From contig CAWKPH010000001.1 in NCBI GenBank assembly GCA_963851445.1, positions 489,363 through 553,362 on the forward strand: a stretch of 64,000 nucleotides of DNA, in the 5' to 3' direction. This DNA is from an uncultured bacterium. Lineage in GTDB: Bacteria; Patescibacteriota; Minisyncoccia; Phycocordibacterales; Phycocordibacteraceae. Positions 1 to 63,777 of the stretch are shown here, in pieces; positions within the stretch are counted from its first letter, which is position 1, and each line of letters opens with the position of its first letter. A program made the position numbers and the translations under genes. The notes beneath the pieces are model-generated. The model did not search any database, was not told where the DNA came from, and worked only from the letters and a program-made list of their open reading frames with translations.

Positions 1-2662
1 AGCGATCCGATGGTTTCCGGCCGACGAAAATCTACGAGACAAAGGCTATGAAAAATTGCTTCCGCCCCTTGTGGCTGAACTTCGTAAGAAAGTAAGAGAC
101 TGGAGACTTACAGGCTATGAAGGAGCGAGCGAGACAAGCAAGGCACTTTTGAAGTGGTGGTTTTTGACCGACCACGCAATGGAAAACCCGAATGGCGAGA
201 CGTTTCTTTTTCAATACTATTTTGCCCAGCGAGAAGCCGTCGAAACAGTGATCTGGCTATATGAGGTCGCCAAGGCGCATGACAAGTACGACCTAATTCG
301 CTTCGACGCATCGGGAGCAATCTCGCCGGCAATGTTCGATGAAACATGGACTCGATACATCGTGAAGATGGCTACAGGTGCCGGCAAGACCAAGGTTTTA
401 AGTCTTATCCTCGCATGGAGCTACTTCCACAAACTCTACGAAGACAATTCGCCATTGGCGAGAAATTTCCTTGTGATCGCGCCGAACATCATCGTTCTCG
501 ACCGAATCCGCAGCGACTTCGACGGTCTCAAAATCTTTTTTGAAGACCCGGTGCTTCCTGATAATGGCTACGAAGGCAAAGATTGGCGAAACGATTTTCA
601 ACTGACGCTGCATATTCAAGATGAAATCGGCACTGTGCGAAAGACGGGCAATATCTTCCTCACGAACATTCACCGCGTCTACGAAGGCGCTATGGAAGCT
701 GCTAGTTTTGGCGACGAGGACACGATGAATTATTTCCTCGGCCAGAAACCGGCAGGTGCTACCAACGAATCAAAAATTGACGTCGGCGATATCGTCCGCA
801 ACATCGATGAGCTGGTAGTGCTTAACGATGAGGCACACCACATCCATGATCCGAGGCTTGCGTGGTTCAAGGCGATCGAAGACATTCATAACCGCCTGAA
901 GATGAAGGGTGGCAAACTCAGCTTGCAGGTGGACGTCACTGCGACACCAAAGCACACCAACGGCTCTATTTTCGTCCAAACTGTCAGCGATTACCCGCTT
1001 GTAGAGGCGATCCATCAAAACGTAGTGAAGCATCCTGTGTTGCCTGATCCTGCGAGCCGAGCAAAGCTGCAAGAGCACAAGACCTCCAACTTCAGCGAAA
1101 AATACAAAGACTATATTCACCTAGGCTATCTTGAATGGAAGAAAGTATACGACGAGCATCTCAAGCTCAACAAAAAAGCGGTGCTTTTCGTCATGACCGA
1201 CGACACCAAGAACTGCGATGAGGTCGCCGAATATCTCGAAAACACCTATCCGGAACTCAAGGACGGCGTGCTCGTGATTCACACGAAGGACAACGGAGAG
1301 ATTTCCGAGAGCGTCACCGGCAAAAAGGAAGAAGAACTCAAAAAGCTCCGTGCCGATGCCAACTCGATCGATCGGCTTGATAGTCCCTACAAGGTGATCG
1401 TTTCAGTTTTGATGCTTAAGGAAGGCTGGGATGTCCGGAACGTCACGACGATCGTGGGACTCCGCGCCTACAGCTCAAAGAGCAATATCTTGCCGGAGCA
1501 AACCCTCGGCCGCGGTCTCCGCCGTATGTACCGCGATCCAGACCTTGCCGAAATGGTGAGTGTCGTCGGTACGGATGCCTTCATGGATTTCGTCGAGTCG
1601 ATCAAGAGCGAAGGTGTTGATCTCGAACACCGAAAGATGGGAGAGGGCACCGGCCCTAAATCACCCTTGGTCGTCGAGATTGACCGGGAGAATTTAAAGA
1701 AAGATATCGAGAGTCTTGAAATAGAGATTCCAATCCTCACCCCGCGCATCTACCGAGAGTACAAGAACCTATCGAACCTAGACGTCTCGAAATTCAAATG
1801 TGAAAAACTTCCGATTCAAGAATTTACTGACGAGGAGAAGCGAGAGATCATCTTCCGCGATATCACCAGCGGCGACGTCACGCACAAAACAGAGCTTGAT
1901 AGTAATTTCATACCGAACTACCAAAGTGTGGTCGGCTATTTCACGCAGGTCATCATGAAGGAGCTTCGTCTTGTAAGCGGATACGATATTCTCTACGGAA
2001 AGGTTAAGGAATTTATCCAAAACTGCCTATTCGTGAGGCCGATCGAGCTCGACAATCTGAACTCGCTTCGAAATCTCTCAGAAATCGAAGCTTCCCGAAC
2101 CATCATCGAAACATTCAAGAAAGAGATCAACGCCCTCACTGTTCTCGACAAAGGCGAAGCTGAAATCCGCGACTACATCAAGATCAGCAAAAGCCGGCCG
2201 TTCGTGGTCAAAGATCAGGGCTATATCGTGCCAAAAAAGAGCATCTTCAATAAGATCGTCGGCGATAGCCATCTCGAGCTCGAATTCGCTAATTTCCTCG
2301 AAGGCTGCGACGACATAGTCTCATACGCGAAGAACTACTTCGCGGTCCACTTCAAGATCGATTATCGAAACGCCGACGGCAGCATCTCCGACTACTACCC
2401 TGATTTCATCGTAAAAGTCTCGCCAAAGGAATACTATGTTGTCGAGACAAAAGGTCGGGAAGACCTCGACGACGTCGAGAAGATCAAGCGCCTCAAGCAA
2501 TGGTGCGAGGACGTGAATGCCAACCAGCCAAATTCCAAATTCAAAATGCTGTACGTTAAGCAAGAGGACTGGGATGCGCTTCACCAAAAGCCAAGCAGCT
2601 TCAAAGAAGCTGTGCGAAGTTTCTCCGAAGTCATCGGAGGATCGAGCACTAAGCAAGTCTAA
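1..2662 (+). CDS. Type III restriction Res-like SF2 helicase with C-terminal PD-(D/E)xK nuclease domain (5' partial, reading frame open to window start)
   Basis: Walker A 'ATGAGKTKV', DEAH box 'VLNDEAHH', 'TATP' motif, motif VI 'QTLGRGLRR', 'EGWDV' motif typical of ResIII/HsdR helicases; C-terminal 'PDFIV...VVETKG' PD-(D/E)xK signature. Frame is open upstream of the ATG at 56 to nt 2, so the gene likely starts outside the window. Confidence 0.7.
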   Translation, partial: AIRWFPADENLRDKGYEKLLPPLVAELRKKVRDWRLTGYEGASETSKALLKWWFLTDHAMENPNGETFLFQYYFAQREAVETVIWLYEVAKAHDKYDLIRFDASGAISPAMFDETWTRYIVKMATGAGKTKVLSLILAWSYFHKLYEDNSPLARNFLVIAPNIIVLDRIRSDFDGLKIFFEDPVLPDNGYEGKDWRNDFQLTLHIQDEIGTVRKTGNIFLTNIHRVYEGAMEAASFGDEDTMNYFLGQKPAGATNESKIDVGDIVRNIDELVVLNDEAHHIHDPRLAWFKAIEDIHNRLKMKGGKLSLQVDVTATPKHTNGSIFVQTVSDYPLVEAIHQNVVKHPVLPDPASRAKLQEHKTSNFSEKYKDYIHLGYLEWKKVYDEHLKLNKKAVLFVMTDDTKNCDEVAEYLENTYPELKDGVLVIHTKDNGEISESVTGKKEEELKKLRADANSIDRLDSPYKVIVSVLMLKEGWDVRNVTTIVGLRAYSSKSNILPEQTLGRGLRRMYRDPDLAEMVSVVGTDAFMDFVESIKSEGVDLEHRKMGEGTGPKSPLVVEIDRENLKKDIESLEIEIPILTPRIYREYKNLSNLDVSKFKCEKLPIQEFTDEEKREIIFRDITSGDVTHKTELDSNFIPNYQSVVGYFTQVIMKELRLVSGYDILYGKVKEFIQNCLFVRPIELDNLNSLRNLSEIEASRTIIETFKKEINALTVLDKGEAEIRDYIKISKSRPFVVKDQGYIVPKKSIFNKIVGDSHLELEFANFLEGCDDIVSYAKNYFAVHFKIDYRNADGSISDYYPDFIVKVSPKEYYVVETKGREDLDDVEKIKRLKQWCEDVNANQPNSKFKMLYVKQEDWDALHQKPSSFKEAVRSFSEVIGGSSTKQV

Positions 2663-2669
2663 AATCAAA

Positions 2670-4337
2670 ATGGAAACAGCCGCCCAAGAGGAAAAATATA
2701 AAACAGCACTCTCGGAGAGGGAAAGGCACACCTCGGCAATTTTAAGTTCCACATCAAAAAATAAGATCGTCGTCGCCGGTCCGGGAACCGGCAAGACTCA
2801 TCTTTTTAAGGAAGTCCTGAAAGGAAAAACGAACACGCTCACTCTGACATTCGTTAATGCACTGGTGGAAGATTTGTCGCTTGAATTATGCGGCATCTCT
2901 GACGTGAGGACGCTTCACAGCTACGCCCGCAGCGAATTAAGCAAGGCGGTCAAAAAAGACGTCAAACTATACCCGAAGCTACCCCAGATCATTCAACAGG
3001 ACGCAAAGATTCTGCTCGGCGAGGATATAAATTTTGATCAGATATTTCACGATCGTGACGACGAAAACAAACACATAGATTTTTACAAAAAAAGAAAAGA
3101 CTATTACGACTACTACGGATACTCAGACGTGATCTTCGCAATAGTAAAGCATTTTGAGAGTAAGAAAGATAAAGTACCTACCTATGAACAGGTCGTGGTC
3201 GATGAATTTCAGGATTTCAACAAACTGGAGGTCTCACTTATTGATTTGCTTTCAGAAAAAAGTCCGATGCTCCTAGCCGGCGATGACGATCAAGCTCTCT
3301 ATGGCTTTAAGAGAGCGAGTGCGGATCATATCCGGCATAAACATAGTGACGCGTGTCCTGAATACGCCCCTTTCAACCTGCCATTTTGCTCGAGATGCAC
3401 TCGGGTGATTGTCGATGCGGCGAATGATGTGATCAACGAGGCAACAAAAGCCGGCTTGCTCAAGAACAGAATCAATAAGCCATACACCTACCTCGACCAC
3501 AGAGACAAAGATAAAGAGTGTGCACGCAACCCGAAAATCATGTACAACCAATCCTACGCGGGTCAGATTCCGTGGTTTATCCAGAAGCGCATAGGAGAAA
3601 TTGCGGAAGAAGTGAAAGGTAAATTTTCAGTCCTGATTATTTCGCCTACAAAAACACAATCTCGTACTGTAGTAAATGCCCTGCGTGAAAAAGGATTCGA
3701 AAACATCGAGATCGACAGAAAGAAGGACGAAAAAGAGCCCGTTCTGATGGACGCCTTGGAACTTTTGCTCGAAGAAAAGAAAAGCAATCTGGGCTGGAGG
3801 ATCGCCGCCAAATGTCTTTTAAGCGAGGATGATTTTAAGGATTTACTCAGTAAAACGCAAAAGGCAGACTCGAAGGGAATTTCAGAGATGATCGATAAGA
3901 CGACCAAAAAAGAAGTCGAGGGGATGCTGAAAATACTCAAGACTATCAAGGATGATAAAAAGGTCGACGAAAAAGAGCTGAACGCCTTTCTTGTAAAAGT
4001 CGGCTTTGATCCGTATGAGATATCAAGCGATTTCTTGAAAAGCGAAATGAACTCAGGTACGCTTCGCGGTGGTAGCCCGGGCTTGAGGAGAATCCCAATA
4101 AAGGCCACTACGATTCAAAGTTCGAAGGGTTTGGCGGCAGATTATGTTTTCATCACCCATTTTGATGACACATATTTTATAAAGGATAAAGACAAGACAA
4201 AAATCACTGATCAGGACGTTTGCAATTTTCTTGTCGCAATAACCAGAGCCAAGAAGAAGCTGTTCCTGATTTCCTCGAATACAACCAAGCAGCCGACTTT
4301 TGCAAAGTGGATTAAAGATCGAATTGAAAAAATATAA
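2670..4337 (+). CDS. UvrD/REP-family SF1 DNA helicase
   Basis: Walker A 'VVAGPGTGKTHLF', motif II 'VVVDEFQDFN', motif III 'LAGDDDQALYGFKRAS', C-terminal 'ATTIQSSKGLAADYVFI' (motif VI-like). ATG at 2670 is 8 nt after the upstream stop. The ORF-track start at 2517 overlaps the previous gene and is likely too long. Confidence 0.75.
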   Translation: METAAQEEKYKTALSERERHTSAILSSTSKNKIVVAGPGTGKTHLFKEVLKGKTNTLTLTFVNALVEDLSLELCGISDVRTLHSYARSELSKAVKKDVKLYPKLPQIIQQDAKILLGEDINFDQIFHDRDDENKHIDFYKKRKDYYDYYGYSDVIFAIVKHFESKKDKVPTYEQVVVDEFQDFNKLEVSLIDLLSEKSPMLLAGDDDQALYGFKRASADHIRHKHSDACPEYAPFNLPFCSRCTRVIVDAANDVINEATKAGLLKNRINKPYTYLDHRDKDKECARNPKIMYNQSYAGQIPWFIQKRIGEIAEEVKGKFSVLIISPTKTQSRTVVNALREKGFENIEIDRKKDEKEPVLMDALELLLEEKKSNLGWRIAAKCLLSEDDFKDLLSKTQKADSKGISEMIDKTTKKEVEGMLKILKTIKDDKKVDEKELNAFLVKVGFDPYEISSDFLKSEMNSGTLRGGSPGLRRIPIKATTIQSSKGLAADYVFITHFDDTYFIKDKDKTKITDQDVCNFLVAITRAKKKLFLISSNTTKQPTFAKWIKDRIEKI

Positions 4338-4339
4338 AC

Positions 4340-5092
4340 ATGTCTGAATACTACAAACCAAACCGAATACGCAACATATACGACCCGGCAAGCGCAGAAC
4401 CTTTCAAGCTGTCCCGATCAAAGATAGAAATGTTCATAAAATGCCCGAAATGCTTTTATATGGATCGCCGTCTTGGAGTAGGGCAGATACCGCCGTTTCC
4501 TTTTGCCTTAAACACTGCCGTAGATACTCTTCTCAAGAAAGAATTTGATGTACACCGAGCAGGGAAAACACCGCACCCTCTGATGAAGGCATATGGGCTT
4601 GATATGGTCCCTTTTCAGCATGAAAAAATGGATGAATGGCGCGAAAACTTCAAAGGCGTTCAGTACCATCACAAGCCAACAAATTTTATAATAACAGGTG
4701 CCGTCGATGACCTCTGGGTAGATAAGGACGGAGAGATTGCAGTCGTAGATTATAAGTCGACAAGCAAACCGAGCAAGGTTACCCTTGATGCTGACTGGCA
4801 GATGAGCTATAAGCGACAGATGGAAATATACCAATGGCTACTTCGCCAAGCGGGATTCAGGGTTTCAAACACGGGTTATTTTGTATACTGCAATGGAAAA
4901 ACAGATCGAAAGGCATTCGATGCTAAAATAGATTTTGATATAGATATTTTGCCCTATACCGGCGATAGCTCGTGGGTGGAAAAAGCCCTGTTCGATATCA
5001 AGGAGTGTCTCGATGGAGAAATGCCAGCTGCGGCGCAGGATTGTGATCACTGTAACTATAGAAAAGCGGCAAATGCGGTTGATCCAAATTAA
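4340..5092 (+). CDS. Cas4/RecB-family PD-(D/E)xK nuclease with Cys cluster (DUF83-like), no CRISPR context
   Basis: 'ITGAVDDLWVDKDGEIAVVDYKS' D...D/E-x-K core; N-terminal 'CPKCFY' and C-terminal 'C...CDHC' cysteines consistent with the Fe-S cluster arrangement of Cas4/AddB-type nucleases. Starts 2 nt after the helicase stop. Confidence 0.65.
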   Translation: MSEYYKPNRIRNIYDPASAEPFKLSRSKIEMFIKCPKCFYMDRRLGVGQIPPFPFALNTAVDTLLKKEFDVHRAGKTPHPLMKAYGLDMVPFQHEKMDEWRENFKGVQYHHKPTNFIITGAVDDLWVDKDGEIAVVDYKSTSKPSKVTLDADWQMSYKRQMEIYQWLLRQAGFRVSNTGYFVYCNGKTDRKAFDAKIDFDIDILPYTGDSSWVEKALFDIKECLDGEMPAAAQDCDHCNYRKAANAVDPN

Positions 5093-8262: not shown

Positions 8263-8283
8263 GTGGACTTTTCGGTTGGCCAT

Positions 8284-9417
8284 ATGAAACTAAGCCAAGC
8301 TATAGAAGAATTTAAAAATTGGAGAGGATTCAAAGTAACGGGTCACACAGTGGTCCGTTACGATAGCGCCCTCCGAATTTTCTGCCTTGTCATGGGCGAT
8401 CCTGAGATCGACCAAATTCAAATCAATCATATTCTCCATTACCTTAAGGAAATGGAGCGACTCGGCTGGAAGCGCAACGGCATAAACATCGTCGCCCTCG
8501 CATTGAGAAAGTTTTTTGAATATTACAATCTGCGAGGTTACAACTGCATCAACGAGTCGCTCATCCCGCTTCCTAAAAAGGAATTTAATATACCGCGTGT
8601 TGCGAACGAGGCAGACTTCAAGAAACTCGTGAAGGCAATTCCACGAGACGACAATCCAAACAATATTCGAAACCTCGCGCTCATACACATGGTCTGGGAC
8701 ACTTGGGCGCGCAGCGGCGAAATAATCTCGCTCAATGTCGACGACCTAAAATTCAACAAGGACGGATCGGGCTCGCGATCATCAAGACAGAGAAGTCGAG
8801 CGGTCGTCGTCCAATCCGAGAAATATTCTGGACTGCCCACACCGGCAAGTACCTCAAGGCGTGGCTCAAGAAAAAAGCAGGAGATTCAGGAAAAGATGGT
8901 CTTCGAGGACACCGGCGCAGTCTTTACATCGATCAGAAAATGCGGACCGTATGACGTCCGTGGCAAACGAATGACGGGCCGAGGAGTCTGCGAGGTTTTC
9001 AGAATGATATCAAATCGAGCGGGTTTGCCGTCGATATTCAATGCACACTCCGCACGCCACTACGGCGGCCGCAAGATCATCAAAGAGGGTGGTGCAAGCG
9101 CAGACGTGACCAACATTCTCGGACACTCGAACCTCGAGAGCTCGCAATTTTATACTATGATGTGGGGCAACGACCTCAAGGAGCGATGGCAGCTCTTCCA
9201 GAACAGCTATAATCCGCGGCAAGATAAGAGCCGGCTGAACCGTAATCTCAAGAGCATCACTCACGTCGACAAATTGGACAATGCCAAGGAGCTCGTCGAG
9301 TCATTTATCGAATATATGCAGAAAGGAAACGTGCCGGTAAATCCTCAATTCATAAATGCACCAAAAAGAGCACCAGCTGTCCGGACCGCGGGCGGTGGGC
9401 AATACTCAAAGTTTTAA
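8284..9417 (+). CDS. Tyrosine recombinase / phage-type integrase (XerC/XerD-like), with a probable compensated frameshift pair inside
   Basis: N-terminal SAM-like domain; box I 'WARSGEIISLNVDDL'; C-terminal 'HSARHYGG...LGHSNLESSQFYT' (H-x-x-R ... catalytic Y). Between ~8765 and ~8880 the integrase-like peptide 'GLAIIKTEKSSGRRPIREIFWTAHTGKYLKAWLKKK' is in a different frame (ORF 8703..8954). The main frame there reads S/R-rich text but stays open. ATG at 8284; the ORF track uses GTG at 8263. Confidence 0.8.
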   Translation: MKLSQAIEEFKNWRGFKVTGHTVVRYDSALRIFCLVMGDPEIDQIQINHILHYLKEMERLGWKRNGINIVALALRKFFEYYNLRGYNCINESLIPLPKKEFNIPRVANEADFKKLVKAIPRDDNPNNIRNLALIHMVWDTWARSGEIISLNVDDLKFNKDGSGSRSSRQRSRAVVVQSEKYSGLPTPASTSRRGSRKKQEIQEKMVFEDTGAVFTSIRKCGPYDVRGKRMTGRGVCEVFRMISNRAGLPSIFNAHSARHYGGRKIIKEGGASADVTNILGHSNLESSQFYTMMWGNDLKERWQLFQNSYNPRQDKSRLNRNLKSITHVDKLDNAKELVESFIEYMQKGNVPVNPQFINAPKRAPAVRTAGGGQYSKF

Positions 9418-47658: not shown

Positions 47659-48285
47659 ATGAGACTGATTCTTGGAGTTGATGAGGCTGGGAGGGGGCCA
47701 CTCGCAGGACCCCTTGCGGTCGGAACAATTGCCGTTCCTGAGGGAACCAATCTACTTGAGATATTTCCAGGCCTTAATGACTCAAAACAGCTCTCTGAAG
47801 AGATGCGTGAAAGGATCTTCGGACAATTAGAAGAAAGCGTCTTGCGTGGAGAAGTGCGATTCCATGTCCAACTGGTGGGTCCGAAGTATATCGATACAGA
47901 AGGTCTCACGGAAGCGATTGGCGTGGGCGTCCGAAGCGGTGTGAGGATGCTCTTGCCCAACCCGTCACTTGGAAAGGTCTTCCTAGATGGTTCGCTCAAG
48001 GCGCCTGAGGAATATGACCAGGAAACCATCATAAAAGGGGACACACTGATCCCTGAGATTATGCTCGCTTCAATCGCCGCAAAAGTGACCCGTGATCGAC
48101 GTATGGTACAGCTTGGGCATAAATATCCTCAATACGGATTCGAAATACATAAAGGATATGGCACCGAAGCCCACTATCAAGCACTGCGAGAGCATGGGCC
48201 CTGCAAGATACATAGGCAATTATTTCTACGAAAATTCAACAATGCAATGCTGGAAGAAAAAACGGAAATGGATTCGCCGGCATAA
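47659..48285 (+). CDS. rnhB: Ribonuclease HII
   Basis: 'MRLILGVDEAGRGPLAGPLAVGTIAV' is the RNase HII catalytic N-terminus; length 208 aa. Confidence 0.85.
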   Translation: MRLILGVDEAGRGPLAGPLAVGTIAVPEGTNLLEIFPGLNDSKQLSEEMRERIFGQLEESVLRGEVRFHVQLVGPKYIDTEGLTEAIGVGVRSGVRMLLPNPSLGKVFLDGSLKAPEEYDQETIIKGDTLIPEIMLASIAAKVTRDRRMVQLGHKYPQYGFEIHKGYGTEAHYQALREHGPCKIHRQLFLRKFNNAMLEEKTEMDSPA

Positions 48286-48393: not shown

Positions 48394-48759
48394 ATGTCAG
48401 TCCGAATGCGCCATACGAGCTCCCACAGCAAGAATCGTCGAAGTCACCATGCTTTATCGAATGCTACTATCGTGACCGATAAGGAAAGTGGCAAGCTTCG
48501 CTTGCCCCACACTCTTGATGAATCGACCGGTATGTATCGAGGCATTCAGATTGTTCCCAAAAAAGAGATTCGCAAAGAAGAGAAGAAGGACGAAGCGAAA
48601 ACTAAGCATAAGCGCGAGCACACTCCTGCTGGCGGCGTGAATGAACCCATCCATACTGAAAAGCATCAAGCGAAAGAGAAAAGTGAAAGACAATCACAAG
48701 GACTGTTCGAGAAAGTCACTCATGACAGAACTCGTTCGCGGTCGGGCACTGGTTCCTAA
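48394..48759 (+). CDS. Small basic low-complexity hypothetical protein
   Basis: 121-aa K/E/R-rich ORF followed at 48773-48793 by a small hairpin (ccgc ttcaa gcgg) plus TTTTT. No homology recognised. Confidence 0.25.
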
Positions 48760-48873
48760 GAATAGATATGCAAACCCGCTTCAAGCGGTTTTTGCTTATA
48801 CACTTTATACACCTCATTACGCCTATTCAGAGCGTCCTAATATTGTTACTCTAGTAAGGTACTGCTCTTTCAT

Positions 48874-49785
48874 ATGGCCAATCGGCATCTAGCACGTTCA
48901 GTCGTTCTTCAAACACTTTTTGAGTGGGATACAACGCATGCCCAGGACGAGAATGTTATCGAAATTCTAGATCGCAACGTTGAAGAATTTGGGGGCGAGG
49001 ATACCGATCGCGTCTTTATGGAACAGCTTCTCAAGGGTGTCATCGCGAAACGTCAAGACCTTGACCTTGTTATAGGCAAGGCGGCCCCCGATTGGCCTAT
49101 TGAAAAGATCGCACCCGTTGATCGGAATATTTTACGCATTGGACTCTTCGAGCTCTTGTTTGCTGACCGTACACAAGTTCCGGCGAAAGTTGCAATCAAT
49201 GAGGCCATTGAGCTTGCAAAAATCTTCGGCGGTGAATCATCAGGTCGATTTGTGAACGGCGTGCTTGGCGCTGTATACAAAGAGATGGGCGAGCCTGGTA
49301 AAGACGAAACCGGGAAAAAGCAAAAGGTAAGCCGTGCGGAACTTCCGCTACAGCAGTTAGGAGGTGCAATCGTTTATGCATACCACGAAGGGCAGTATTA
49401 CCTCGCGCTTGTGCACGATGTTTTTGGGCATTGGACCCTATCGAAGGGCAAGCTCGAACCAGGAGAAAATGTAGAACAAGGAACAATCCGCGAAATCAAA
49501 GAAGAAATGGGCGTGGACATAACAATCGAGGCAAAGATCGGTGAGAACGAATACATCGCGTCGCACCCTGAAAAAGGGAAGTTCCGCAAGCACGTAAGTT
49601 ATTTTCTCGCACGCTCGGAATTTGAACCTCTCAAACTTCAAGAGGAAAAAGGGGGTCTCGACGATGTGCGCTGGTTTCGCCTAACCGATATTCTTGACCT
49701 TAACTTCTACGATGATATGCTGCCAATCGTAACGGCGGCGGTGCAGAAAATACTCGACACAGCACCCAAGCCCCGAGCCTCATAA
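48874..49785 (+). CDS. nusB: NusB-like antitermination domain fused to a C-terminal NUDIX hydrolase domain
   Basis: N-terminal ~135 aa: 'ARSVVLQTLFEWD...DRNILRIGLFELLFADRTQVPAKVAINEAIELAKIFGGESSGRFVNGVLGAV' (NusB). C-terminal Nudix box 'GKLEPGENVEQGTIREIKEEMGV' (Gx5Ex7REUxEExGU) in the same uninterrupted ORF. Confidence 0.75.
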   Translation: MANRHLARSVVLQTLFEWDTTHAQDENVIEILDRNVEEFGGEDTDRVFMEQLLKGVIAKRQDLDLVIGKAAPDWPIEKIAPVDRNILRIGLFELLFADRTQVPAKVAINEAIELAKIFGGESSGRFVNGVLGAVYKEMGEPGKDETGKKQKVSRAELPLQQLGGAIVYAYHEGQYYLALVHDVFGHWTLSKGKLEPGENVEQGTIREIKEEMGVDITIEAKIGENEYIASHPEKGKFRKHVSYFLARSEFEPLKLQEEKGGLDDVRWFRLTDILDLNFYDDMLPIVTAAVQKILDTAPKPRAS

Positions 49786-50475
49786 ATGCCTGACTTTTCT
49801 GAATACGCTAAGAAACTTGAATTAACTTTTAGTAACCTTGATCTCTTTGTCGAGGCGCTCACCCATCGTTCCTATCTAAACGAGAATCGTGATGCAGTCC
49901 ACGCTCATAATGAACGGCTCGAATTTCTCGGTGATGCCGTACTGGAACTTGCAGTTACTCACTTTCTTTTTCATAAATTTCCCGATCGTGATGAAGGTGA
50001 TCTAACTGCGTATCGGGCCTCGCTTGTGAATACCGTGTCGCTCGCACACATTTCACAAACACTCGGACTCAACGATATGCTCCTGCTTTCAAAAGGGGAA
50101 GCCAAGGATACTGGACGCGCAAGACAGATCATCCTTGCAAACGCTTTTGAGGCACTCCTTGGTGCCATTTATCTCGATCAGGGATATGAGGTTGCAGAAT
50201 CGTTTCTTGCGAAGCATCTTTACAATAAAATCGACGACGTGATCAAGACACGTGCCTGGCAGGATGCAAAGAGTCATTTTCAAGAAGTCGCGCAGGATAA
50301 GGAAAACACAACACCTCACTATCAAACCATTCACGAAGAAGGTCCTGATCACGACAAACATTTCACGGTCGGGGTATATCTTGGCAGCAAGGAGATTGCA
50401 CAGGGCGTTGGTAAATCAAAGCAGGAGGCTGAGCAAGAAGCGGCAAAAAATGCGCTTGCGAAGACCGGCTGGTAG
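49786..50475 (+). CDS. rnc: Ribonuclease III
   Basis: RNase III signature 'HNERLEFLGDAVLELAVTHFLF'; C-terminal dsRBD 'KSHFQEVAQDK...HFTVGVYLGSKEIAQGVGKSKQEAEQEAAKNAL'. Start codon overlaps the upstream stop (taaATG). Confidence 0.9.
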   Translation: MPDFSEYAKKLELTFSNLDLFVEALTHRSYLNENRDAVHAHNERLEFLGDAVLELAVTHFLFHKFPDRDEGDLTAYRASLVNTVSLAHISQTLGLNDMLLLSKGEAKDTGRARQIILANAFEALLGAIYLDQGYEVAESFLAKHLYNKIDDVIKTRAWQDAKSHFQEVAQDKENTTPHYQTIHEEGPDHDKHFTVGVYLGSKEIAQGVGKSKQEAEQEAAKNALAKTGW

Positions 50476-50510: not shown

Positions 50511-52724
50511 ATGCTGAAGCGACTCGAGATCGCTGGTTTCAAATCATTCGCGCGTAAGACGGTGCTTGATTTCTCTGCACAGGCGACTGCGATTGTGGGA
50601 CCAAACGGATCGGGCAAATCGAACCTTGCAGAAGCCTTTCGTTTCGCTCTCGGCGAGCAGTCGATGAAGAGTATGCGCGGGAAGCGCAGCGAGGACCTCA
50701 TCTTTGCGGGTTCGCACACAATTCAGCGCGCGAATCGTGCGGCGGTTGCGATTGTATTTGATAATACGCGACGTATATTTCCGAGACTTGATTTCGATGA
50801 AGTCATTGTCGAGCGAGCGGTTTTTCGCGATGGCAACAGCGAGTACTCGATAAATGGTAGTCGTGTACGCTTGCGAGATGTACAGGAACTCCTCGCAAGT
50901 GCGAATATCGGCGAAACGGGACACCACATCATTTCCCAAGGCGAGGCAGATCGCATATTACTTGCTGCCCCGCGCGAGCGACGCGCAATGCTCGAGGACG
51001 CGCTCGGCCTTAAGACATTTGAATTCAAGAAACAGGAAGCAGAGCGTAAACTCGAAAAGACCGAGGAGAATGTTAAGCAAGTAGAGTCGCTGCGTCGAGA
51101 GATAGCGCCACACATCAGATTTCTTTCAAAACAGGTCGAACGTCTCGAGCGTGCTGACGAGCTCCGCCGAGATCTTCAGACCGCATACCAGACGTATTTT
51201 GCGGTCGAAGAGACCTATCTTTCGGTTGAAAAAGAACAAACCGAAAAAGAGCTCAGCGAAACTGATGATCGTCTTCGGGTTCTGGAACGTGAACTTGCCG
51301 AATACGAAAAAAAGACTGCGCACGATACAGCCGGTATGCAGCGGACACAGGCAGTGCGCGAAGCTGAGCGAGAAGTGGATCGGATCACGAGTGAGCGAGC
51401 AGGACTTGCTCGAGAGCTCGGTCGTGTTGAAGGAGCTGTCGAATCAGCACGCAAGCGAAGCATCCAAATGGCTCGGGATTCATATGTGAAGGTGTCTCGC
51501 GATGATCTCGCAAGCCTGAAGAGTGAAGTCGATCGTCAGAGCATGATTAGCGAGACAAGCGATACTTCAGCATTCCGTGCAGCTCTAGAATCAATACATC
51601 GCGCAGTCACAAATTTCTTTGAACGATTTGCAACCCCAAACGATGATTATCTCTCTGAAGAGGAGAAAACGGTTTTCTCTCTCGAAAAGGAACATGGTGA
51701 ACTTGTTGCAAAGGAAGAGACACTGAGCGCGGGGCTTGAGGAGGCGCGCACGAAACTTGCTCGCATGCGTGAAGCTATAATCGCGCATGAGGAAACTGGC
51801 CGTGAGGAAAATCACCGCATGCTCGGACTCGTCGAAACGAAAGCTCGTGAAGAGGGGATCATAAGCAAGTGCAAGACGCATCTCGAGCGCCTCGTGTTGC
51901 TCAAGGCTCAGTTTGAGCGCGAGCGCGGCGAGGCTCTCGCACTAGCAGGAACGCCGGCACTCTCCTACGTCGGTGTTGAAGAGCTTCCTCGTGAGGAGCG
52001 CAGCGCACAAGAAGATCGGCTACGTGTTATCGAACGTCTTAAAATCCGCGTTGAGGAAGCAGGTGGTGCAGGTGAGGATGTGCGTTCAGAATATAAGGAT
52101 TCGGTTGAGAGAGAGGCATTTCTTGCACGAGAGCTTGAGGACCTTTCAAAATCAGCTGCTGGTCTACGCTCTTTGATCAAGGAGCTTGATGAAGAGTTGA
52201 GCAAGACATTTTCCGATGGCCTACGTAAGGTAAATATATCTTTTAATGAATTTTTTGCACTTATGTTTGGCGGCGGCAAAGCAGAACTCGTGCTTGAAGA
52301 ACTAACAAATGAAGATGACGAAGAAGAAAGTATGGATGAAGTACCGCACGAACTTCATATACATCGTAAACCTGGCATTGAAGTTAGTGTAAACCTTCCG
52401 AAAAAGCGTGTGCAATCACTAATGCAACTTTCAGGGGGCGAACGAGCCCTCACCTCAATTGCGCTCATCTTCGCAATGAGCCAGGTGAACCCGCCGCCGT
52501 TTCTCATTCTCGACGAGACTGATGCAGCGCTCGATGAGGCAAATTCGCGCCGCTATGGTGATATGATCGAGAGCCTAGCGAAACGTTCCCAGCTAATCGT
52601 AATTTCTCACAACCGCGAAACAATGAGCCGAGCTGGTATTTTATATGGTGTAACTATGAGCGCCGACGGTGTCTCGAAACTGCTCTCCGTTAAATTTGAA
52701 GAAGCTGCTGCTGTCGCCAAATAA
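50511..52724 (+). CDS. smc: SMC-family chromosome segregation ATPase, unusually short (737 aa)
   Basis: N-terminal head 'MLKRLEIAGFKSF...IVGPNGSGKSNLAEAFRFALGEQSMKSMRG'; C-terminal head 'LSGGERALTSIALIFAMSQVNPPPFLILDETDAALDEAN'; long E/R/L-rich coiled coil between. rnc-smc synteny conserved. Confidence 0.75.
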   Translation: MLKRLEIAGFKSFARKTVLDFSAQATAIVGPNGSGKSNLAEAFRFALGEQSMKSMRGKRSEDLIFAGSHTIQRANRAAVAIVFDNTRRIFPRLDFDEVIVERAVFRDGNSEYSINGSRVRLRDVQELLASANIGETGHHIISQGEADRILLAAPRERRAMLEDALGLKTFEFKKQEAERKLEKTEENVKQVESLRREIAPHIRFLSKQVERLERADELRRDLQTAYQTYFAVEETYLSVEKEQTEKELSETDDRLRVLERELAEYEKKTAHDTAGMQRTQAVREAEREVDRITSERAGLARELGRVEGAVESARKRSIQMARDSYVKVSRDDLASLKSEVDRQSMISETSDTSAFRAALESIHRAVTNFFERFATPNDDYLSEEEKTVFSLEKEHGELVAKEETLSAGLEEARTKLARMREAIIAHEETGREENHRMLGLVETKAREEGIISKCKTHLERLVLLKAQFERERGEALALAGTPALSYVGVEELPREERSAQEDRLRVIERLKIRVEEAGGAGEDVRSEYKDSVEREAFLARELEDLSKSAAGLRSLIKELDEELSKTFSDGLRKVNISFNEFFALMFGGGKAELVLEELTNEDDEEESMDEVPHELHIHRKPGIEVSVNLPKKRVQSLMQLSGGERALTSIALIFAMSQVNPPPFLILDETDAALDEANSRRYGDMIESLAKRSQLIVISHNRETMSRAGILYGVTMSADGVSKLLSVKFEEAAAVAK

Positions 52725-55765: not shown

Positions 55766-56441
55766 ATGGCTGCAATCCGATTCCATTTGGTGACGCTCTT
55801 TCAAGAGGCCTGTAAACCCTATTTAAGCGCTTCTATCGTAGGACGAGCTCAGAAGCAGAAATATATAAAGATTTTCTATCAGAACCCACGTGATTTTGTC
55901 ACCAATAGATGGGGAAAAGTCGACGAGCGTCCATATGGTGGTGGTCCGGGAATGGTTATGACTGCGCTACCCGTTGTCAAATCCGTGAAGAAGGCACTCA
56001 CTGCTAGGACAGATAAAAAGAAAATCGCCATTGTATGGTTTGTGCCTGGCTCAAAAGCGTTTACGAATAGCGACGCTGACAGGTTAGCAAAATTTAATGA
56101 CATCGTACTCGTGTGTGGACGATATGAAGGTATCGATGAACGCGCGTTGAAAATTTTTCAAGACCATGGGAATTGTAAAAACGTATTCCGTAGGAGAAGC
56201 CACTTTAACTGGTGGAGAAGTTCCTGCACTCGCGGTCATAGATGCCATAACACGCAGGCTCCCAGGAGTTCTCGGAAAGGACGCTTCAATCGAAGAGCGT
56301 CGCGTGGCTTCGCACGAGGTGTATACAAGACCCGAAACCATTGAATGGAAGGGCAAAAACTACAAAATACCGAAAGTTCTGCAAACCGGTCACCATGCGA
56401 ATATCAATTCCTGGCGCTCAAAACCAAGTCGCAAAGCATAA
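55766..56441 (+). CDS. trmD: tRNA (guanine37-N1)-methyltransferase, interrupted by one frameshift near 56165
   Basis: N-terminal 'IRFHLVTLFQEACKPYLSASIVGRAQ...NPRDF...VDERPYGGGPGMVM...LVCGRYEGIDERA' in frame 2; C-terminal 'GEATLTGGEVPALAVIDAITRRLPGVLGKDASIEE...YTRPE...VPKVLQTGHHANINSWR' in frame 3 (ORF 56166..56441). Confidence 0.8.
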
Positions 56442-56694
56442 CAAGAATTTATTCCACAGGCTCTGTTAAGGGTAGTTGACGGCAGACAGGGGTTCGCGTT
56501 ACTATAGGCATACGAGATTGAGTAACGAAGGGCGGTTACGTTATGTGCAGGCAATAAAAGCCGTGGGGAAGATTTAGGGCAGAAAACCAGTTGGAGAGTA
56601 CTTTTATCAGCGCCTCGGAAAACGAGTAGCGCCGCTCGTACGTATGTACGAGCCGTTCGACGTTTTATACCTTGGCTATCTTCATATAATCTAC

Positions 56695-63664
<6,970 letters not shown>

Positions 63665-63777
63665 ACTTAACAATGAGAAGGAAATGTGCGATGGAAAACA
63701 CTGGGTGGAATCCGGTGTTTTCCAAGTAAAATTCGTAAGGCGCGAATATGTTAATTTTGGAGTAAAATTAGAGAACG

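Follow-up and report, generated by a model that had tools for sequence, protein, structure and literature searches.

A constrained Nudix-fold domain with a relaxed catalytic motif, fused to NusB across the Parcubacteria group

Why should NusB, a universal single-copy factor of ribosomal RNA (rRNA) synthesis whose accessory partners beyond model bacteria are largely unknown, end in a Nudix-fold domain? The question is raised by a 64,000-nucleotide stretch of DNA (the window) from an uncultured bacterium of the Patescibacteriota (assembly GCA_963851445.1, contig CAWKPH010000001.1, positions 489,363 to 553,362), in which an earlier note had claimed an uninterrupted open reading frame (ORF) that joins NusB to a complete Nudix box. 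Both claims held. Positions 48874 to 49785 of the forward strand form a single ORF of 303 amino acids, free of stops and frame changes and matched by both Pfam domains, which is called nusB::nudix here. It encodes a NusB domain (amino acids 1 to 139, positions 48874 to 49290, recognised by PF01029 and TIGR01951), a lysine-rich linker of about 17 residues predicted to be disordered (amino acids 140 to 156, 49291 to 49341) and a Nudix-fold domain (amino acids 157 to 296, 49342 to 49761, recognised by PF00293, phmmer and Foldseek). The Nudix box of this protein, GKLEPGENVEQGTIREIKEEMGV (G192 to V214, 49447 to 49515), fits the pattern GX5EX7REUXEEXGU exactly, as its orthologues often do not.

The fusion is found far beyond this contig. 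An identical protein with the same neighbours is present on an independent Logan contig, and a search of 5.8 billion proteins gave, among the matches listed, at least 120 clusters at 76-100% identity, all with both Pfam domains. A profile search yielded at least 120 further clusters at about 57-64% identity, and again all those listed had both domains. When the Nudix part alone was searched against representatives of clusters at 50% identity, an N-terminal NusB was present in about 60 of the best 150; about 45 of these were full-length fusions, with Nudix domains only 29-56% identical to that of the window. A GTDB scan with one genome per species confirmed at least 597 relatives, and the best 80 of them, taken for locus analysis, were all full-length fusions at 61-81% identity. 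According to the record names, these loci come from Kaiser-, Adler-, Lloyd-, Nomura- and Zambryskibacteria, Paceibacterota and Parcubacteria, all placed by NCBI in the 'Parcubacteria group'; Moranbacteria, too, are named among the carriers of the fusion. On these sequences we take NusB::Nudix to be the standard form of NusB across that group. One relative, P0213 (577 amino acids), has a long unrelated N-terminal region followed by a partial NusB (amino acids 327-418) and the Nudix domain (amino acids 420-563); it represents a fusion of larger size or else an error of gene calling.

Two separate genes joined through a sequencing indel or a mis-assembly would give the same picture in a single genome, and rpoB and rpoC of the same assembly do show apparent frameshifts and in-frame stops. 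Independent corroboration of the fusion matters because these two genes of the window are broken. It is provided by hundreds of independent NCBI, JGI, ENA and Logan assemblies, which share the architecture together with a conserved linker motif, so that we reject an artefact as having a negligible chance of being true. The indel merger against which the earlier note had warned is likewise contradicted by the 240 listed clusters, the best 80 GTDB loci and the Logan contig. Its remark that it knew of no description of the fusion also stood, since none was found within 8 million full-text papers in the literature on NusB, Nudix, Patescibacteria/Parcubacteria and the candidate phyla radiation (CPR). 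The same note had stated that a Nudix domain of a non-RNA family, in a fusion both common and annotated, would speak against its proposal. The fusion is indeed very common, whereas the names given in the source records, 'NusB' or 'N utilization substance protein B', cover the NusB part only. Both Pfam domains are already recorded for these proteins in protein databases, and yet a protein named plain NusB keeps its extra Nudix domain invisible in current annotation. Altogether, these results indicate that NusB::Nudix is a real, ancient and clade-wide variant of NusB that has apparently gone undescribed.

The N-terminal half has the features of a genuine NusB. PF01029 covers amino acids 7-136 (E-value 1.9e-34), the NusB equivalog model TIGR01951 gives 128 bits for a cutoff of 88.35, which places the protein within NusB by score, and the half aligns end to end with the NusB proteins of E. 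coli, T. maritima and A. aeolicus. In an AlphaFold2 model built from a 62-sequence alignment (mean predicted local distance difference test score, pLDDT, of 84), amino acids 1-139 are all-helical with a pLDDT of about 85-95, and Foldseek searches of the PDB superimposed them on known NusB structures with template modelling (TM) scores of 0.86 for 1tzv and 0.89 for 3r2c, the NusB-NusE-BoxA complex. The N-terminal R4 and R8 and the NEAIELAK..F.NGVLG core are kept among orthologues. Models of RsmB, a methyltransferase with a NusB-like N-terminal domain, match the NusB part, NF011494 giving 62.8 bits, far under the cutoffs of 319-540 bits. Judged by these scores, the ORF is the true NusB of the organism and not RsmB, and its NusB half would form the heterodimer with S10 (NusE) and bind boxA RNA.

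In the same model the protein consists of two well-folded domains joined by a segment of pLDDT below 50 (amino acids 140-151), and with a predicted TM score (pTM) of 0.54 the model predicts no fixed orientation of one to the other. Directly after the last NusB helix lies the segment Y-K-E-M-G-E-P-G-K-D-E (amino acids 135-145, positions 49276 to 49308), which is invariant in the close family. Its GEPxK part is largely kept even in representatives that are just 30-50% identical, while AlphaFold2 predicts it to be disordered. The segment resembles the short linear motifs that serve for binding.

Ordinary Nudix hydrolases conserve their box more strongly than any other segment. Here, it is the least conserved part of the protein. 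Of the close and the mid-distance homologues, 120 each, 35 and 59 kept the full box, as did 6 of the 38 deep representatives and 16 of the 80 GTDB loci; among the stand-alone relatives it was kept in 16 of 17. The REx2EE core gave the same contrast: 151 of 278 fused sequences (54%) and 6 of the 38 deep representatives had it intact, compared with 16 of the 17 relatives that stand alone. E207, the glutamate of 'RE' that corresponds to Glu53 of MutT by motif position, remained in only 10 of 39 deep representatives and was replaced in the others by V, K, I, A or G. Over the 278 fused sequences, with position-based weights, the frequencies of box residues were 0.42 for E207, 0.67 for E210, 0.71 for R206 and 0.78 for E198, whereas residues outside the box were close to invariant (1.0 for W187 and Y279, 0.99 for T188 and K191, 0.96 for D182 and W267, 0.95 for Y243 and 0.92 for Y227). 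Several of the box replacements (RK, KR, KK) turn the acidic metal-binding face basic. On a tree made by the unweighted pair group method with arithmetic mean (UPGMA) from the rest of the protein, REx2EE switched between intact and not intact at least 56 times, and proteins that are 93-98% identical outside the box differ inside it. Among 580 pairs that diverge by 10% or less elsewhere, amino acids 193-216 were 3.6 times as divergent as the rest, and the most variable 24-residue windows of the whole protein, starting at residues 193-197, span the box.

In a rough Nei-Gojobori estimate over 22 pairs with a synonymous divergence (dS) of about 1, the ratio of nonsynonymous to synonymous change (omega) had the same value, 0.11, in NusB and in the Nudix domain without its box, while the box itself reached 0.27. 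The Nudix fold is as strongly constrained as NusB, and the catalytic helix is relaxed, not neutral. Since the box is the least conserved part across orthologues, catalysis cannot be what keeps the fusion. A recent recombination or cassette swap of the box was considered and rejected. The genes of P0015 and P0039 are 84% identical in DNA, and their products differ by 15 residues and an indel inside amino acids 193-216 and by only 4 residues elsewhere; their synonymous changes are evenly spread, which indicates long-term unequal constraint and not a recent swap. Positive selection on the box is unsupported, as omega stays below 1 (0.27, from 22 near-saturated pairs). Diversity-generating retroelements are common in CPR bacteria, but one is unlikely here, as the variation includes indels and no adenine bias was visible by eye.

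What kind of Nudix domain has been kept in this way? PF00293 matches amino acids 183-282 (E-value 5.2e-14, 52.8 bits against a cutoff of 21.1), and Foldseek gave TM scores of up to 0.90 to solved Nudix enzymes, so that the Nudix fold itself is well supported. The half passes none of the curated NCBIfam Nudix models. It scored 22.2 bits with the RppH model NF001936 (cutoff 118), 22.7 bits with the NudC model NF001299 (cutoff 158), 22 bits with the MutT model (cutoff 148), 18.2 bits with NF008736, the NudE model of the ADP-ribose/ADP-sugar pyrophosphatase type (cutoff 169), and 31 bits with the MutT1 equivalog NF052459 (cutoff 475), a model that spans a second domain too; the YtkD model TIGR02705 had no match to the window protein at an E-value of 0.01 or below. 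On reading the sequence after the box, no motif of the SQPWPFPxS type was seen, which we take to be specific to NudC.

The nearest neighbours lie elsewhere in the superfamily. With phmmer, these were Ndx1 of T. thermophilus, an Ap6A hydrolase (1e-8), mycobacterial MutT1/Rv2985 (6e-8 for MutT1), hydrolases of diadenosine tetraphosphate, Ap4A (1e-6), Chlamydia CT771 and Dcp2. Foldseek searches of the PDB with the Nudix half gave a similar circle: the best fit was the Aquifex Ap4A hydrolase 3i7u (TM 0.90, root-mean-square deviation, rmsd, 1.9), then Ndx1 (1vc8, TM 0.87) and 4mpo (TM 0.79), with 9cxx, 1ktg, Rv2985, MutT1, CT771, the C. elegans and human Ap4A hydrolases, Dcp2 and NrtR among the further matches. 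By E-value, first place went to 3gz8, the Nudix domain of NrtR, which is non-catalytic and binds ADP-ribose, but its superposition was poorer (TM 0.69, rmsd 4.2). None of the top 50 matches was an RppH structure, and NudC came only at rank 32 with a poor superposition. The lysine before the glycine of the box, of the P-K-G type seen in the diadenosine polyphosphate (Ap(n)A) branch, is present: K191 aligns with K36 of 1kt9, and together K191, H186, K239 and Y279 align with K36, H31, K83 and Y121 of the C. elegans Ap4A hydrolase. In that hydrolase, the four residues presumably contact phosphate and adenine; a literature check of Tyr76 and Tyr121 gave no confirmation. By sequence and modelled fold, then, we assign the domain to the Ap(n)A-hydrolase/MutT1-N/Dcp2-like branch and not to the orthologues of RppH or NudC. 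Its stand-alone relatives, of about 140 amino acids, match the MutT1 Nudix domain best, though below every cutoff. One relative of this stand-alone type, P0261 (381 amino acids), has a canonical box and a C-terminal domain that resembles deoxyribose-phosphate aldolase, as identified by eye; this branch of Nudix domains therefore forms other fusions too.

What a domain of this kind could do on NusB is suggested by the rRNA operons of E. coli. There, NusB and S10 bind boxA of the pre-rRNA leader and, with NusA, NusG and SuhB, stay on RNA polymerase; the complex loops the leader for pairing with the trailer, mutating rnc can suppress defects in nus genes or suhB, and SuhB is a subunit with an enzyme fold whose activity is dispensable (PMC4807359). 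SuhB is required for the stable integration of NusB/E (PMC6614801), and the assembled rRNA transcription antitermination complex (rrnTAC) strongly raises co-transcriptional cleavage by RNase III (bioRxiv 10.64898/2026.03.17.712431). A functional link between NusB and RNase III is well established for rRNA maturation (PMC4807359; bioRxiv 10.64898/2026.03.17.712431), and the connection to RNase III made in the earlier note is sensible in biological terms.

From the architecture, phyletic spread, synteny, selection pattern and fold assignment, all of which are observed, we infer the following interactions. The NusB part would bind S10 and the boxA of nascent pre-rRNA and ride with RNA polymerase, as in E. 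coli, and the complex would keep the 5' leader near the polymerase and promote co-transcriptional cleavage by the RNase III encoded in the adjoining gene. The tethered Nudix domain would be an accessory subunit of that complex, with binding and not hydrolysis as its conserved job. Its likeliest ligand would be a phosphate- or nucleotide-type group, either on the leader RNA at its 5' end or in a nucleotide signal; alternatively, it may bind a partner protein or RNA within the complex. In genomes with a complete box, including this one, an added hydrolysis of 5'-triphosphate, of an NpnN cap or of ApnA may persist. We favour this reading of the Nudix domain as a tethered accessory of the rRNA transcription and processing complex, probably conserved for binding, with hydrolysis optional and possibly retained here, but we hold it tentatively and with a confidence slightly short of even. 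A narrower form of it seems distinctly unlikely to us, namely that the domain reads the 5'-triphosphate or NpnN-capped end of the pre-rRNA leader, cleaves it where the box is intact and tethers this end to RNA polymerase through NusB until the helix of leader and trailer is cut by RNase III, standing in for SuhB as a covalent functional replacement. Pfam scans of most large ORFs of the 64-kb window revealed no second Nudix gene and no SuhB, NusA, NusG or S10.

Several points weigh against an accessory that is kept for binding. The AlphaFold2 model has no fixed contact between the two domains (pTM 0.54), and the binding of a ligand or partner by the Nudix domain is itself something that we infer. 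The box is relaxed without being neutral (omega 0.27 over 22 pairs at dS of about 1), REx2EE is kept in about half of the closer orthologues as well as in this genome, and catalysis may be important in this sub-clade. Some Nudix enzymes function with altered boxes, so that a degenerate box is not proof of an inactive enzyme. Finally, most of the invariant Nudix residues sit in the core of the fold and may be purely structural.

According to the earlier note, the fusion would couple antitermination to 5'-end processing through an active enzyme of the RppH or NudC type; more broadly, NusB would bring an RNA 5'-end enzyme, RppH-like or decapping NAD- or Np4N-capped ends, to nascent transcripts and thereby couple antitermination to 5'-end conversion and RNase III cleavage. 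The perfect box of this genome fits such an enzyme, as does a branch that includes Dcp2 and the Ap(n)A hydrolases, which cut 5'-5' polyphosphate links. The adjacency to rnc is conserved, and boxA lies in the 5' leader, which would put a NusB-tethered domain near the 5' end (as derived from PMC4807359). However, the RppH and NudC models score only about 22 bits against cutoffs of 118-158, neither enzyme figures as a good structural match, the nearest relatives being Ap4A/Ap6A hydrolases and MutT1, and the decay of the catalytic motif weakens the case for any dedicated 5'-end enzyme: most deep lineages have lost the catalytic glutamate, and so have many near-identical orthologues, although the domain is under strong purifying selection. 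The claim of the earlier note for an RppH- or NudC-type activity is not supported by these results, and we regard the broader account as rather unlikely.

If catalysis is set aside altogether, the domain could be a small-molecule sensor like that of NrtR. By binding a nucleotide metabolite, for example ApnA, ADP-ribose or an alarmone, it would adjust the activity of NusB, and with it rRNA output, to the nucleotide status of the cell. In favour of this, the family can dispense with the catalytic residues but keeps K191, K239 and Y279, and NrtR does have the best Foldseek E-value. Its fit is nonetheless poorer than that of the Ap4A/Ap6A hydrolases (TM 0.87-0.90), and an allosteric interface with NusB is not predicted at a pTM of 0.54, so that we think a sensor quite unlikely. 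Very unlikely, in our judgement, is an unrelated passenger, a housekeeping hydrolase of Ap(n)A or oxidised nucleoside triphosphates that became fused during genome reduction while the two halves stayed independent. The stand-alone relatives are indeed ordinary Nudix proteins of about 140 amino acids with canonical boxes, and the small genomes of CPR bacteria are rich in gene fusions. Yet a purely enzymatic passenger that loses its catalytic residues should decay or be deleted, and here omega outside the box equals that of NusB; moreover, lineages have retained the fusion even where their Nudix domains share only about 30% identity.

The gene neighbourhood ties nusB::nudix to RNase III. In the window, the gene is preceded by rnhB (47659 to 48285) and by rpmF (48394 to 48759, forward strand), which encodes ribosomal protein L32 (121 amino acids; Ribosomal_L32p at amino acids 6-54, E-value 6e-10; TIGR01031), and it is followed on the forward strand by rnc (49786 to 50475; TIGR02191 260 bits, Pfam Ribonucleas_3_3 and dsrm) and smc (50511 to 52724; Pfam SMC_N), with the RNase R gene rnr downstream of smc on the opposite strand. 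Across the 80 related loci the order dnaE (reverse strand), rnhB, rpmF, nusB::nudix, rnc, smc and rnr (opposite strand) recurs nearly without exception. The L32 gene is upstream in 72 of the 80, smc is downstream in most, and rnc lies immediately 3' on the same strand in all 79 loci that reach far enough. The order of rnc and smc presumably agrees with that of Bacillus subtilis.

The earlier note had placed nusB::nudix directly upstream of rnc, which is correct, with overlapping stop and start codons, which they are not: rnc begins at the base right after the stop codon (TAA|ATG), with a gap of 0, so that the two genes abut. Estimated gaps in the 79 loci were 0 or less in 15, 1-30 nucleotides in 18, 31-150 nucleotides in 33 and above 150 nucleotides in 13. 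By these loci, co-expression with rnc is probably conserved, but tight translational coupling is not. Of the coupling proposed in the note, a probable co-expression with rnc thus remains, while the close stop/start junction is shared by only 15 of 79 loci. A terminator-like hairpin, CCGCTTCAAGCGG, followed by a run of T, was found by consensus scan just 3' of rpmF on the forward strand (48776 to 48796) and suggests that nusB::nudix and rnc begin a transcription unit of their own. The product of rpmF has a long C-terminal tail rich in lysine and glutamate after its L32p domain (amino acids 6-54); on the Logan contig the gene caller missed rpmF and called two small ORFs over the same sequence.

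A boxA-like element was seen at the very start of nusB::nudix. GCTCTTTCATA (48864 to 48874, forward strand) matches 10 of the 11 positions of GYTCTTTAANA and ends at the A of the start codon; the published consensus was taken from PMC5725501. In the window alone such a match is not significant (15 matches for 8.7 expected), and the 64-kb window has no rRNA genes. Across loci, which are phylogenetically related, the enrichment at this position is significant: where the background density predicts 0.66 loci, GYTCTTT starts between -30 and -5 of the nusB::nudix ATG in 21 of 78, and G[CTA]TCTTT does so in 31 of 78, against 0.85 expected. The same interval upstream of control genes had it in 1 of 76 loci for rnc, 0 of 69 for smc, 1 of 56 for rnhB and 0 of 72 for rpmF. 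In many of the related loci a GC hairpin is followed by a TATACT-like -10 box about 20 nucleotides before the ATG. Among them, L014, L020-L027 and L030 have TTTGCTATACT, which resembles an extended -10 box (TGnTATACT), about 35 to 20 nucleotides before the ATG, after a GC-rich hairpin and before the boxA-like AGATCTTTCC-ATG. This arrangement suggests that nusB::nudix is transcribed from its own promoter, with a leader that is only about 10-15 nucleotides long and lacks a Shine-Dalgarno sequence. The boxA-like element is a candidate autoregulatory site of NusB/S10, which, when bound at the start codon, would probably repress translation of its own gene. In gamma-proteobacteria, boxA within 50 nucleotides upstream of Nus-factor genes mediates autoregulation, which has been shown experimentally for suhB and predicted from sequence for rpsJ and ribH-nusB (PMC5725501).

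The damaged genes mentioned above lie 7-14 kb downstream of the fusion, where rpoB and rpoC (56400 to 63700) are broken under genetic code 11. One frame of rpoB covers 56578 to 57642 and 57646 to 58464, split by in-frame TGA codons, and the gene continues in other frames in pieces at 58634 to 59323, 59044 to 59430 and 59181 to 59897; rpoC is split at 60502/60644 within a single frame. These breaks reflect either an assembly error, a strain collapse or something unusual such as recoding, and because of them the assembly is not trustworthy base by base. Just upstream of rpoB, a TrmD-like ORF of 192 amino acids (55766 to 56344) matches just positions 2-98 of the 195 of the tRNA 1-methylguanosine (m1G) methyltransferase profile and may have been truncated by the same sequence problems. 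At its left end, the window contains a ResIII helicase with an endonuclease domain (56 to 2662), a UvrD-like helicase (2517 to 4337), a PD-(D/E)XK nuclease (4340 to 5092) and a tyrosine integrase (8263 to 9417), a cluster that looks like a mobile or defence island.

Throughout a whole radiation of ultra-small uncultured bacteria, then, a Nudix module is constrained like NusB while its catalytic motif drifts. This pattern points to an unrecognised component of the rRNA transcription and processing complex, perhaps a counterpart of SuhB that is built into NusB, or else a reader of nucleotide signals or of 5' ends of RNA. If the domain does read 5' ends, a bacterial antitermination complex would for the first time be known to contain a reader of this kind. 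The family also offers a clear natural example of an enzyme domain that becomes a pseudoenzyme.

Compared with known systems, the window protein shares with the stand-alone NusB of E. coli, T. maritima and A. aeolicus a helical fold of about 135 amino acids and the conserved N-terminal arginines, but these proteins lack the linker and the C-terminal Nudix-fold domain of about 140 amino acids. Its gene lies between rpmF and rnc, unlike in proteobacteria, where the usual context is ribH-nusB. The ribH-nusB arrangement in Pseudomonas is mentioned in PMC5725501. A precedent for the architecture is RsmB, the 16S rRNA m5C967 (5-methylcytosine) methyltransferase, in which a NusB-like N-terminal domain is fused to an enzyme that acts on rRNA; its C-terminal domain, however, is an S-adenosylmethionine-dependent methyltransferase, and RsmB is not the antitermination NusB.

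The Ap4A/Ap6A hydrolases and MutT1-N proteins (Ndx1 1vc8, aq_158 3i7u, CT771, Rv2985 and M. smegmatis MutT1) are the best matches in sequence and fold and share with the window protein the W-x-x-x-K-G lead-in to the box. They are free-standing or fused to a histidine phosphatase and have conserved boxes, whereas in the present family NusB is the fusion partner and no segment varies more among orthologues than the box. RppH, NudC and Dcp2 belong to the same superfamily, Dcp2 being among both the sequence and the fold matches, and an action on RNA 5' ends like theirs would be compatible with the place where NusB binds; the window protein has neither the zinc and N-terminal domain of NudC nor the regulatory domain of Dcp2. 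In NrtR, too, a Nudix fold is retained for binding although its catalytic box has been lost or relaxed, but NrtR is fused to a DNA-binding winged helix, regulates NAD genes and fits the structure less well than the Ap4A hydrolases. In CFIm25/NUDT21, a non-catalytic Nudix domain binds RNA. The likeness to SuhB of the E. coli rrnTAC is one of functional analogy only: SuhB is an accessory with dispensable catalysis that stabilises NusB/S10 and promotes processing by RNase III, and it is a separate dimer with an inositol monophosphatase fold, while the module described here has a Nudix fold, is covalently joined to NusB and would be a presumed member of the corresponding complex.

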